From IMG/VR virus record IMGVR_UViG_3300045988_094645: a stretch of DNA of 57,970 bases. One strand, 5' to 3'. Numbering within the stretch: the stretch's first letter is position 1; the number at the start of each line of letters is the position of its first letter. This document shows positions 55,017 to 57,970 of the stretch, in pieces. The position numbers and the translations under genes are program-made. The stretch comes from a virus. The notes beneath the pieces were generated by a model that ran no database searches, had not been told where the DNA came from, and saw nothing but the letters and a program-made list of their open reading frames with translations.

Positions 55017-55656
55017 AACTCAATTCAATAGCTTTTAATTCATCTATTGAATTAGCTCCAAATATCTAGGTTTTATATTCTTGCATTAAGTGGTATTTTG
55101 GATATACCGCATTAGAAATAGCTAAACTTAGAGCGGATAATTGCTCTAAAGTCCATGGTACACACTCTTCGTGTCGAGCGTGCCACTCAAGCGTAGGATT
55201 TTCTACTTCAGCAGCTACAGCCACCTAGAATTGATTGAGATTTAAGCTAATCTCAGATTGGTCCTCCTACGTAATTCCATATTCTTTTCCATCGACCCAA
55301 GTTAACGGGTGGGTAGCAAGATACTCTGCGAATAGTTTCTTGTTTTCCTCTTGTTTATCATATTTTGCCTAATCTAAATCAGCGATGAAAGTACCATCTT
55401 CTTGATTATACTTTGAATAGTTAGGAATGACGTTTGATGGAATTGTTTCCAACTCTAATACTGTAACAGCATTAGGTTGATTTAATACATCGGCTTTGAC
55501 TAGAGTGTAATGAGTATCACTATCTGAGCCGATAACCCCAGTTCCCTCTTCTTCCTCGCAGGCAACGACAATACCATTTGAGGATTGCAGTTTAATGTAA
55601 CGTGCTTCTGAAAGAATATCAACTACTATATTCTCTCTATTTAATAGAATATACAT
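54994..55656 (-). CDS. hypothetical protein (~220 aa; five in-frame TAGs)
   Basis: supplied ORF 55369-55656 ends at a TAG; continued frame reads ...FIADLD[TAG]AKYDKQEENKKLFAEYLATHPLTWVDGKEYGIT[TAG]EDQSEISLNLNQF[TAG]VAVAAEVENPTLEWHARHEECVPW... to TAA; its ATG overlaps the RT stop (TAATG). Confidence 0.35.
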
Positions 55657-56873
55657 TACTTTATTTCAACTCCTTTGAATAATGAACGAAAATAATTGTC
55701 CATGTCCTGAATTATATAAAAGCAAGTTCCTTTAGAAATATGCGCCCTCCAGCCCTAATAAGATTTCTAAACTTCTTCAGTTGAAATTTTATTATCTAAC
55801 CATAAAGCCTACATTTTCTTTAGTTTTCTGCGCTGATGAGCTACTTTTTTCTTGAAAGGAAGTTGTATTATATGATTAGTTTCTGTGAGATGAAAATTCC
55901 ACTTTAAATATTTAAAAGGAGCGTGGCGTTCGCCATCTGCGTGAATAGGAGAAATTCTAGTGATAGTAGTTTTCTTCTTATTCATCTTTAATCCTTGTTT
56001 ATTTAAGCGAATTTCTATTTGTTTCTCACATTCGGCCAAGTATTTACTGTCATTATGGAGCAAGTATAAATCATCCATATAACGACCATAATACTTAATA
56101 TGTAACTCTTCTTTTATGAAGTGGTCAATTTCGTTCAATGCTAGCAATGCGAATAATTGTGACGTTTGACTTCCTAATCCCAGGCTCTTTCTTTCATATT
56201 CATAATACTTACGACCAGGCTAGAAATGAGTAACATTAACTCTTTCATACTTGTGTCGCTTACTTGTGTAATATATTTTACCGGGTATAGGCGAAGTGTC
56301 TTTTGTTAGCTTAAAAGAAAATGTATCTATCAAGTAACAACATAACTAATAAACAAGTTTATCTTTTATTAGCCGTTTAGCTGCTTTCTTTAAAGATTCA
56401 TGGTCAATAGAATCAAAATATTTCTGTATATCAATTCTTAATCCATAAAAATCTTTTCCTAACCCATACTCTTTATGAGCCTATTGGAGATGTTTCTTAA
56501 CTCTTTCCAGAGCGAAGTCTATTCCCTTTCCTTTTAGGGTTGCACAATTATCATAGATAAATCTAGGAGTTAATTCTGGTAGCAAAACTTGTTCACATAA
56601 CGCATTTTGTACCAGTCTGTCGTTGATATGACACGCTCTTATATCTCTTGGTTTGCCTCGTTCGATTATCGAAAAACAACTAAACACAAGCTGTTCGTAT
56701 TCACACGCTCGCAGGTCAGCTTCTGTTTTTAAAATTGTTTCTATCCTATTCTCTTCAAAATTAATTGTACTATCTTTCCATCGAACGTTTCGACATACCT
56801 TATAAGACGCCTCATACATAGCGTCAAAACTACAAAAACGCTCGAAAGCAGTATCTTGTTTTATTTCAGACAT
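55656..56873 (-). CDS. diversity-generating retroelement reverse transcriptase (~404 aa if all TAGs are read through; first in-frame TAG after 355 codons) with six in-frame TAGs
   Basis: supplied ORFs 56481-56873 and 55809-56147 share one frame, and the 333-nt gap holds only TAG stops. Translation gives DGR-RT motifs: ...GKPRDIRACHINDRLVQNALCEQVLLPEL...FIYDNCATLKGKGIDFA..., LRIDIQKYFDSIDHESL, GLGSQTSQLFALALNEIDHFI, YGRYMDDLYLL (YMDD). Confidence 0.8.
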
Positions 56874-57181
56874 ACTTTCTCCTTATCATGTAGCTATAGT
56901 GGTAGCTACTCGAGCTCCACGTCTACAGTCTTACTTTATCCACTTTTTCAGTGAAATGGTTAAGTTCTCCTTAGATGAAAAGGCAGATCTACCTATAGTA
57001 TATTATTCGATAGTTGTAGAGCAAAGCTCTTTAATGGTCTCTCAATCTCTTCCCCACATAAAGTGAGTGCAATCCAGAGTAAACCTTAATTAGATGGATA
57101 ATAATATACTCCGGGGTACTATTTAGGCGTTGCTCGTTTGCGCTGCTCCGCAGCTTAACTCGCAACATGATAGCTCCATCT

Positions 57182-57290
57182 AATCCGGCGCGAGCCCGTT
57201 GCTGTTGTTGTAGTTGTTGTTGTTCGCAGATCCATCGTTGTTGACATTGCAAACGTTGTTCGAGTTGTTGTAGTTACTGGACCGAAAGAT
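57182..57290 (-). repeat. DGR template repeat (TR), AAC-codon rich on the minus strand
   Basis: 57182-57247 matches 57905-57970 at ~49 of 66 positions; 16 of 17 mismatches fall where this copy has T on the plus strand, meaning A on the minus/RT-sense strand, the DGR adenine-mutagenesis signature; right boundary approximate. Confidence 0.7.
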
Positions 57291-57470
57291 ACAGAACTTA
57301 ACCGTAGAAAAATATTATCGACCTCTCCTATATCTCTTAGGAGCTGAATATCTATGCTCTGTTATAAGTTTATCTCTATTTTTTCTATCTTGGATTGACT
57401 CTTTTACTCTCTTTGTCAATCTAGCTAGATGTTCAAAAGAGCGTCTTTTCTTTTTGCTGTTCTGAGCATA

Positions 57471-57809
57471 CTAATAAATACATAGGTCGATTTGTCGAAA
57501 TATACTATCACAATATTCTAGTGCTTTATTATGATAGTCATTTCTCTTTGCAAGGGTTTCTTTGTCTTTCAAGTTTATCTTACATGCCTCATAACAGCAA
57601 GCATGTAAGCCCTTTCCGCACTTAATTATATCGTACCCGAACGCTTGAAGAGGTTGACCCTCTCCAAGCAGTCCAGGCTTACAAATTTGTTTTCCATCCT
57701 TATCATATTCTCTAGGACGAGTTAAGACTAAAATATATCCCATTAAGTCGCGTGCTTTATAAAGACAATCTTGCTTTGATATGTGTCTATCTTTTACTTT
57801 TACAGACAT
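57471..57809 (-). CDS. candidate accessory variability determinant (Avd)-like small protein (112 aa), assigned by position between VR and TR
   Basis: supplied ORF; the canonical order target-VR/avd/TR/RT is reproduced on the minus strand; no family match could be confirmed by eye. Confidence 0.35.
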   Translation of the reverse strand: MSVKVKDRHISKQDCLYKARDLMGYILVLTRPREYDKDGKQICKPGLLGEGQPLQAFGYDIIKCGKGLHACCYEACKINLKDKETLAKRNDYHNKALEYCDSIFRQIDLCIY

Positions 57810-57904
57810 TTAAAATCTCCCTCACTTGAATATATAAAATTTTAGTTGGACAATTTAATCTTAACTGTCCCGAATTGTTATTTTATTGTGTTATCCGATA
57901 ACGA

Positions 57905-57970
57905 AAGCCGGCGCGAGCCCGTTGCTGTCGTAGTAGCCGTCGGAGGTCGCAGACCCCTCGGCGCGGACAA
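57905..57970 (-). repeat. DGR variable repeat (VR), partial and truncated by the window end; 3' end carries a GC-rich IMH-like element (GCCGGCGCGAGCCCG) and a GTTATC-C-GATAAC palindrome just downstream (57890-57902)
   Basis: see TR evidence; VR has C/G/A where TR has T (plus strand); the target gene must lie on the minus strand beyond 57970. Confidence 0.65.

Follow-up and report, generated by a model that had tools for sequence, protein, structure and literature searches.

The stretch of DNA analyzed here (the window) comprises 57,970 nt of a virus (IMG/VR record IMGVR_UViG_3300045988_094645), and it very probably ends in a functional diversity-generating retroelement (DGR). The element lies on the minus strand, where the tail module ends, in a phage of ~146 kb that reads TAG as glutamine and probably infects Bacillota. 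This assessment rests on the anatomy of the cassette, the adenine bias of its repeats, the turnover of its variable repeat (VR) in nature, the decoding of TAG and a suppressor tRNA encoded in the same phage type. Element coordinates are positions in the window and are collected in Table 1. The elements placed here by an initial annotation of the sequence were all found where it had put them or a few bases away, and the order that it proposed, of target gene with VR, Avd-like accessory gene, template repeat (TR) and reverse transcriptase (RT), is well supported as that of a complete DGR.

Anatomy and natural activity of the retroelement

The two repeats differ almost exclusively at adenine nucleotides of the TR, as had been claimed from the sequence of the window. 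Ungapped alignment of TR and VR in the window gives 15 mismatches over 63 alignable nt. Fourteen of them lie at TR adenines, of which there are 23 in the 63 nt (binomial P = 7e-6), and the sole non-adenine mismatch is T->G. We collected 40 related loci from IMG/VR by searching with the N-terminus of the RT, and both repeats are present in 20 of these. Here there are 383 mismatches at TR adenines and three genuine mismatches at other nucleotides when L031 is set aside; the remaining non-adenine mismatches all come from L031, where a deletion in the TR has shifted the register. The TR/VR alignments in the relatives fix the boundaries, and the TR is therefore ~100 nt in length. The initial annotation was right to place a TR here, and its extent of ~57290-57182 is now refined (Table 1).

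In the frame of the VR the TR reads GTC AAC AAC GAT GGA TCT GCG AAC AAC AAC AAC TAC AAC AAC AGC AAC..., and AAC makes up nine of the 20 TR codons in the segment that can be aligned with the window VR. A GC-rich 13-mer, GGGCTCGCGCCGG, closes each of the repeats; the G+C content of the genome is 36%. Beyond the 13-mer the flanks diverge at once in all loci, with CTTTCG following the VR and ATTAGA following the TR. The shared 13-mer resembles an initiation of mutagenic homing (IMH) sequence, and we refer to it as IMH-like. A search for a hairpin or cruciform after the VR of the kind found in phage BPP-1 gave only a weak stem of 8 bp, which is not significant (z = 0.22).

Comparison of 11 assemblies that are 94-99.9% identical in their flanks shows a stable TR and a changing VR. 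Nine of the TRs are mutually identical, that of the window carries one substitution and that of L041 has four VR-like bases. The readable VRs of the same assemblies all differ from each other, with the differences at TR-A sites. In the collection, 240 blocks contain an identical Avd fragment, and in 230 of them the longest contig is shorter than 2 kb. The short contigs examined begin or end inside the VR, the same is true of the window and of at least five IMG/VR contigs, and one scaffold has a run of N within its VR. We ascribe these breaks to heterogeneity of the VR within samples, which disrupts assembly. Together, the near-identical TRs, the differing VRs and the contigs broken inside the VR indicate an element that is apparently active in nature.

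Some individual repeats have peculiarities of their own. The substitution in the window TR is a private C->A at 57278 near the 5' edge (CCAGT, where all ten close relatives have CCCGT). In L041 the TR (about L041:10510-10612) has four non-A bases (GCTTTGTCGG) that exactly match its own VR, where the other TRs read GCAATGTCAA; this could be an assembly chimera of TR and VR, or a conversion of TR by VR. The VR of L012 (L012:8856-8947) contains an in-frame TAG (...DYTqGLAPAFVIGN and stop) that has arisen through non-adenine changes.

With TAG translated as glutamine, the RT matches Pfam RVT_1 (1.8e-16) and, over residues 7-399, phrog_1423 (5.6e-83). In tblastn the DGR RTs of Roseburia phage Shimadzu and of Faecalibacterium phages align over residues 8-403 with 28-35% identity. 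The best match among solved structures is the DGR RT of BPP-1 (8UB7_A, E 3.5e-14), and the alignment spans the DGR hallmark, which is LGSQTSQLFA in the window RT and IGSLTSQLFA in bRT. LGSQTSQ occupies residues 233-239 (56177-56157) and YMDD residues 265-268 (56081-56070). From ATG to TAA the frame is intact, keeps all of the motifs, and is interrupted by neither TAA nor TGA on the way. The initial annotation counted the TAGs of the RT exactly, with three before codon 355 and six up to the TAA. It ended the core of the enzyme at the TAG of codon 355; the protein in fact extends to the TAA at codon 406, in agreement with the extent of the PHROG profile and of the homologues. Three TAGs (codons 131, 176 and 218) lie ahead of both LGSQTSQ and the YMDD active site. 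Thus the RT requires TAG read-through, and the proposal that active enzyme depends upon suppression stands.

The accessory gene had been ended at its own TAG, at 57471, and must be extended through this codon to the TAA (Table 1). The resulting 164-aa protein has 87 homologues in a big protein collection, mostly of the same length, and the TAG (codon 113) aligns with glutamine in most of 31 aligned homologues. The protein is basic (pI 9.7), and it found nothing in Pfam, NCBIfam or PHROGs, nor in a profile search of the PDB. An AlphaFold2 model built from a 92%-identical homologue (pLDDT, the predicted local distance difference test score, of 88) has a four-helix bundle with a short beta-hairpin insert. 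On the basis of this model the protein would be an Avd-like basic four-helix bundle.

The frame that closes the window at its end reads ...VRAEGSATSDGYYDSNGLAPAFVIG followed by a stop. The target gene had been predicted to lie beyond 57970, and we find it in L041 (contig Ga0245310_100109, 144,004 bp), which was reached by look-up of an N-terminal fragment of Avd. L041 matches the last 10.5 kb of the window at 98.96% identity and runs on past the VR. It contains an open reading frame (ORF) of 588 aa that closes in the VR (...GLAPAFVIG and stop), has a TTG start behind a ribosome-binding site GAAGGAGG, and includes five to six in-frame TAGs. The encoded protein has Big_3 immunoglobulin (Ig)-like repeats (1.5e-12) and a C-terminal DUF6273 domain (3.2e-9). 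An AlphaFold2 model of the C-terminal domain has a pLDDT of 95.7. In a Foldseek search of the PDB it has a single significant neighbor, 9QA6 (2e-4), and the weaker matches are mainly C-type-lectin-like, mixed with exonuclease I chains; the comparison does no more than suggest a C-type-lectin-like fold. We also considered that the target might be reached by circular wrap-around. This was rejected, as the start of the window has no suitable minus-strand ORF and the target lies in other contigs.

The region between TR and RT is ~310 nt long and contains a structured RNA directly 3' to the TR. In its closing helix 57185-57175 pairs with 57098-57088, and this encloses a nested hairpin (57166-57129) with its tip at 57154-57142. 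The RNAalifold consensus of nine diverse relatives has 30 base pairs, 12 of which have compensatory double changes. In the alignment 90% of cells are paired, compared with 32-44% when the partners are slid, and none of 500 shuffles reaches the observed covariation. By analogy, the spacer would fit the TR-spacer RNA that BPP-1 uses in priming.

We infer the biochemical mechanism from these elements and from BPP-1, and with it a receptor-binding role for the target. A single minus-strand operon encodes the target, the Avd-like protein, the TR with its structured spacer RNA, the RT, a tail-fiber-like protein and a membrane protein. The target has Ig-like repeats and the C-terminal DUF6273 domain, whose last ~33 codons form the VR. 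As in BPP-1, a complex of RT and Avd would bind the TR-spacer RNA, which would then serve as the template for cDNA, with nucleotides misincorporated at random opposite its adenines. This cDNA would replace the VR via the shared GC-rich 3' element, so that as many as ~14 codons of the AAC type in the receptor-binding tip could be rewritten. The in-frame TAGs (six in the RT, one in Avd and five to six in the target) would be read as glutamine by a phage tRNA(CUA) encoded outside the window. Because RT, Avd and target all contain in-frame TAGs, the DGR is inert unless amber suppression operates.

Table 1. The DGR operon and its downstream boundary, with the in-frame TAG codons of the RT. Positions are those of the window.
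Feature	Position	Strand	Basis or remark
Target gene 3' end, last 25 codons and TAA (57893-57891)	57891..57970	-	frame translation VRAEGSATSDGYYDSNGLAPAFVIG and stop; continuation in L041
VR, 63 visible nt of ~100	57908..57970	-	ungapped alignment to TR
IMH-like GC-rich 3' end of VR, GGGCTCGCGCCGG	57908..57920	-	identical to TR 57197-57185
Avd-like gene, 164 codons, in-frame TAG 57473-57471 (codon 113), TAA 57317-57315	57315..57809	-	
TR, non-coding, 36% A, AAC codons in VR frame	57185..57284	-	TR/VR alignments, 20 relatives
Structured spacer RNA, directly 3' of TR	57088..57185	-	RNAalifold consensus, 9 diverse relatives
DGR RT, 405 codons, ATG at 56873, TAA 55658-55656	55656..56873	-	RVT_1, phrog_1423, 8UB7_A, tblastn
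RT in-frame TAG, codon 131	56483-81	-	
RT in-frame TAG, codon 176	56348-46	-	
RT in-frame TAG, codon 218	56222-20	-	
RT in-frame TAG, codon 355	55811-09	-	
RT in-frame TAG, codon 369	55769-67	-	
RT in-frame TAG, codon 373	55757-55	-	
Tail-fiber-like gene (DUF4376), 220 codons, 4 TAGs	54994..55656	-	weak matches only
Small membrane protein, 152 aa, without TAG, last gene of operon	54558..55016	-	PF06541 4e-12; phrog_20274 1.8e-39
Strong terminator-like hairpin, bidirectional, 20-bp stem flanked by runs of A and T	54512..54559	.	

TAG as a glutamine codon and the suppressor tRNA

Gene callers using code 11 break the RT into pieces of 130, 37 and 112 aa, as they would if the standard code applied, the TAGs were true stops and the RT were a fragmented pseudogene. 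This explanation is already refuted by the observations that follow, and we give it practically no credence. Under the standard code, ORFs of 100 codons or more account for 41% of the window; with TAG read through they account for 92%, and reading through TGA or TAA restores less. A giant, unannotated ORF in the tail region (32750-41275) has 2841 codons of which 98 are in-frame TAGs. Homologues point the same way. In an alignment of 38 RT sequences the columns that contain TAG hold glutamine most often (291) and glutamate next (102), and several columns hold only glutamine and TAG. One of these is the glutamine of the GxxxSQ motif, an otherwise invariant position that is TAG in some relatives. 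In relatives with 91-94% DNA identity the window TAGs at codons 131, 176, 355 and 373 are CAA and that at 218 is AAG; the TAG at 369 is shared.

The same phage type also encodes a tRNA that could decode TAG. ARAGORN detected no tRNA in the window, nor within 10 kb on either side of the DGR in the 40 relatives, and Rfam at the gathering threshold returned nothing in the window. The suppressor was reached by a walk of ~35 kb through contigs that are ~99% identical to the left end of the window, into a region with an array of more than 30 tRNAs, a transfer-messenger RNA (tmRNA) and a ROOL RNA. A tRNA with a CUA anticodon lies at L204:12782-12856, just past the main run of the array, on a contig that is 99% identical to the window where they overlap. 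The 91%-identical clade has a tRNA(CUA) as well (L208:12789-12864). The tRNA has a U1.U72 mismatch and G73 as discriminator, both of which are identity features for glutaminyl-tRNA synthetase. From the sequences we conclude that TAG is translated as glutamine throughout the genome.

Another candidate suppressor, at L057:2068-2187, was rejected as it lacks a CTA anticodon. It is a tRNA-like sequence (Rfam tRNA, 50.9 bits) with an insertion of 43-58 nt in the anticodon arm, which ARAGORN reads as Ser(gct) when introns are allowed. The ROOL RNA (RF03087, 350 bits) lies at L057:1206-1801 and the tmRNA (RF00023, 71.6 bits) at L056:17754-18084; the contig is IMGVR_UViG_3300045988_093451, of the same phage type as the window. 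Both RNAs are inside the tRNA array, which puts them ~10-30 kb beyond the left end of the window.

Five structural genes in the window contain no TAG. They are three adjacent head-module genes (23479-25838), a gene for a virion structural protein (phrog_2729) and one more ORF, the last two at 28983-30377 and 31935-32465. In neighboring genes TAG occurs at 2-5 per 100 codons. Such a pattern would be expected if highly expressed proteins avoided codons whose decoding depends on suppression.

The large terminase subunit (TerL) is closest, at ~50% identity, to those of Enterococcus phages VRE9_4, H1 and EF1 and Geobacillus virus E3, and complete-looking contigs of the phage type are 144-148 kb in length. 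The affinities of TerL and the size of these contigs therefore place the window in a large recoded phage that is not crAss-like, and judged from sequence its host is probably a member of the Bacillota. A megablast search with the last 8 kb of the window against GenBank phages gave no DNA match, and look-up of the leftmost ORF of the window found no record. Two ENA contigs, L053 and L054 (290,702 and 293,444 bp), are about twice the length of the ~146-kb genome. They have probably been assembled as head-to-tail dimers, from a genome that is circularly permuted or terminally redundant.

Timing of suppression and the state of the cassette

Stop-codon recoding in phages has been read as a means of late-gene regulation by Borges et al. 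(10.1101/2021.08.26.457843), who do not mention reverse transcriptases or DGRs (0 occurrences). The pattern of their model is present in the phage type of the window, in that structural genes are rich in TAG, replication genes are poor in it, and a suppressor tRNA is encoded. Unlike the model, the replication genes are not fully free of TAG. We find a gradient rather than a dichotomy. The plus-strand structural block has 2.39 TAG per 100 codons (51% of Gln-like codons), the DGR operon 1.17 (26%), the RT alone 1.48 (32%), and replication regions of contigs of the same type 0.19-0.51 (8-18%). TAG is absent (0%) from the 6.7 kb adjoining the gene for tRNA(CUA). The DGR thus falls on the recoded side. 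The TAG-free segment (L204:14000-20663, with 0 TAG in 1431 codons) resembles the standard-code 'code-change' neighborhoods of Borges et al.

The timing of expression is something that we can infer only conditionally. The initial annotation held that dependence on suppression would tie diversification to the recoded, late phase. The dependence of the RT is upheld; its confinement to the late phase is not, as the TAG positions are not conserved and the replication genes carry TAGs. Suppression cannot be strictly late for the latter reason. In its full form the proposal would have the TAGs of RT, Avd and target silence the DGR until tRNA(CUA) has accumulated, with retrohoming occurring late, on replicated genomes before packaging. 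Several observations are in line with such a gate. Every intact RT among 35 relatives has at least one TAG, and the window lineage has gained TAGs upstream of the catalytic site (131, 176 and 218). The TAG density of the operon is 2-6 times that of replication regions, with the segment beside tRNA(CUA) being TAG-free, and the operon adjoins the tail module. Moreover, Borges et al. propose exactly such a gate for an intron endonuclease as well as for late genes. Yet the TAG counts of the RTs range from 1 to 15 and their positions vary between clades, such that codons 131, 176 and 218 are TAG in the window lineage only. In L043 and L044, which are 94% identical in DNA, TAG is missing from codons 1-346, a stretch that takes in the entire catalytic core. 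A DnaE-like replication ORF of 1304 aa has one TAG and the helicase has two. Drift alone, at the rate of the operon, would be expected to place ~5 TAGs in a gene of 405 codons, and the presence of at least one TAG in each RT is therefore uninformative. On balance we consider a gate of this kind unlikely. It is a little less likely again that a translational timer would couple receptor diversification to the late, packaging-competent stage, with codons 131, 176 and 218 reflecting selection for tighter gating. Most simply, the TAGs would be ordinary glutamine codons of a recoded genome, and not a dedicated, conserved timer.

It might also be supposed that the cassette in this genome is a recently inactivated relic, whose VR reflects past activity and whose TAGs are tolerated without selection. 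Close relatives do have clearly damaged RTs. L041 has TGG375->TGA (L041:12059-12061), L042 has a 10-nt deletion around position 11980, L005 an early stop and L006/L007 a frameshift. Individual genomes may therefore be inactive, and DGR-off variants may circulate, or these lesions may be assembly errors. In addition, Lou et al. (bioRxiv 10.1101/2023.08.07.552389) saw the RT of a DGR deleted in a recoded phage within three years, and the window itself has the non-A mismatch in its VR and the private substitution in its TR. However, the window RT is intact with TAG as glutamine, retains all motifs and aligns from end to end with its homologues. TAG is equally dense in the terminase, portal and tail genes, which the phage certainly requires, and 14 of 15 mismatches at adenine speaks against a long period of decay. 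We regard a relic as decidedly improbable.

Some features weigh against a functional DGR. Besides the damaged RTs of close relatives (L041, L042, L005-L007), the VR of the window is truncated and holds a change other than at adenine. The accessory protein matches no Avd sequence model, and four-helix bundles are common among proteins. For the target domain a C-type-lectin fold is only weakly indicated, and both target gene and suppressor tRNA are seen in near-identical relatives and not in the window. A functional DGR remains the reading that we strongly favor.

Relation to known systems and neighboring genes

The cassette has the same order of target/VR, accessory gene, TR and RT as the DGR of BPP-1 (mtd-VR, avd, TR, brt). 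The two likewise share adenine-specific differences between TR and VR, AAC codons in the TR, a GC-rich 3' element on both repeats and a structured spacer RNA between TR and RT. The motif xGSxTSQLFA is common to both RTs, although the window RT is only a distant relative of bRT. Compared with BPP-1 Avd, the accessory protein of the window has 164 aa and a beta-hairpin insert, and no match at the level of sequence to the Avd family (PF05635 / TIGR02436). The target of BPP-1 is Mtd, whereas that of the window lineage has Big_3 repeats and DUF6273. Unlike BPP-1, the window has no significant hairpin after the VR and has TAGs in all three proteins, and it belongs to a ~146-kb recoded phage.

DGRs have been described in other recoded phages. 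Lou et al. report three code-15 gut phages (I57_PsAC1, I79_PsAC1 and I123_PsAC1) with DGRs whose RTs have multiple in-frame TAGs and adjoin a recoded tail-protein target; the 3' VR turned over during three years, and one RT was lost by deletion. As described, those phages are of ~99.6 kb, with one assigned a Bacteroides host, unlike the ~146-kb lineage of the window with its TerL nearest to those of Enterococcus and Geobacillus phages. In Zeta crAss-like phages (PMC12386605) amber suppression applies to seven DGR RT genes, the RTs have GxxxSQ, a suppressor tRNA(CTA) is present and the targets are tail fibers with C-terminal lectin-like and Ig-like domains. Those phages belong to the Crassvirales and mostly lack Avd, whereas the window RT is nearest to DGR RTs of Bacillota phages. 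Among GenBank phages, the closest RTs belong to Roseburia phage Shimadzu and to the Faecalibacterium phages Toutatis, Brigit and Lelie, with 28-35% identity across 93-98% of the length, and no RT match to gut Bacillota phages exceeds 35% identity. Given these two studies, a TAG-bearing DGR RT in a recoded phage is already known. New here are the lineage itself, the complete anatomy with its Avd-like protein and its spacer RNA, and evidence of activity at the scale of populations.

A widespread lineage of ~146 kb, with dozens of IMG/VR contigs, thus joins the recoded phages that diversify a tail protein. Annotation with the standard code, and DGR detectors, miss or fragment the DGRs of such phages. 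With a variable load of TAG in the RT, RT-dead variants and a known tRNA(CUA), the lineage offers a natural system in which to ask whether recoding times a retroelement.

Downstream of the RT the operon continues with the tail-fiber-like gene, whose start overlaps the stop of the RT (TAATG) in the same operon. Its matches are to DUF4376 (2.6e-4, below the Pfam cut-off) and to phrog_1348, a tail fiber (1.4e-4). The terminator-like hairpin stands between the DGR operon, on the minus strand, and the tail block, on the plus strand. A scan for sigma-70 promoters gave hits no more frequent than in shuffled sequence, and we claim no promoter. The plus-strand late block is headed by a sigma-factor-like gene (16208-17266; phrog_5767, 1.2e-38) that has a C-terminal zinc-finger/HNH-like tail and nine TAGs.

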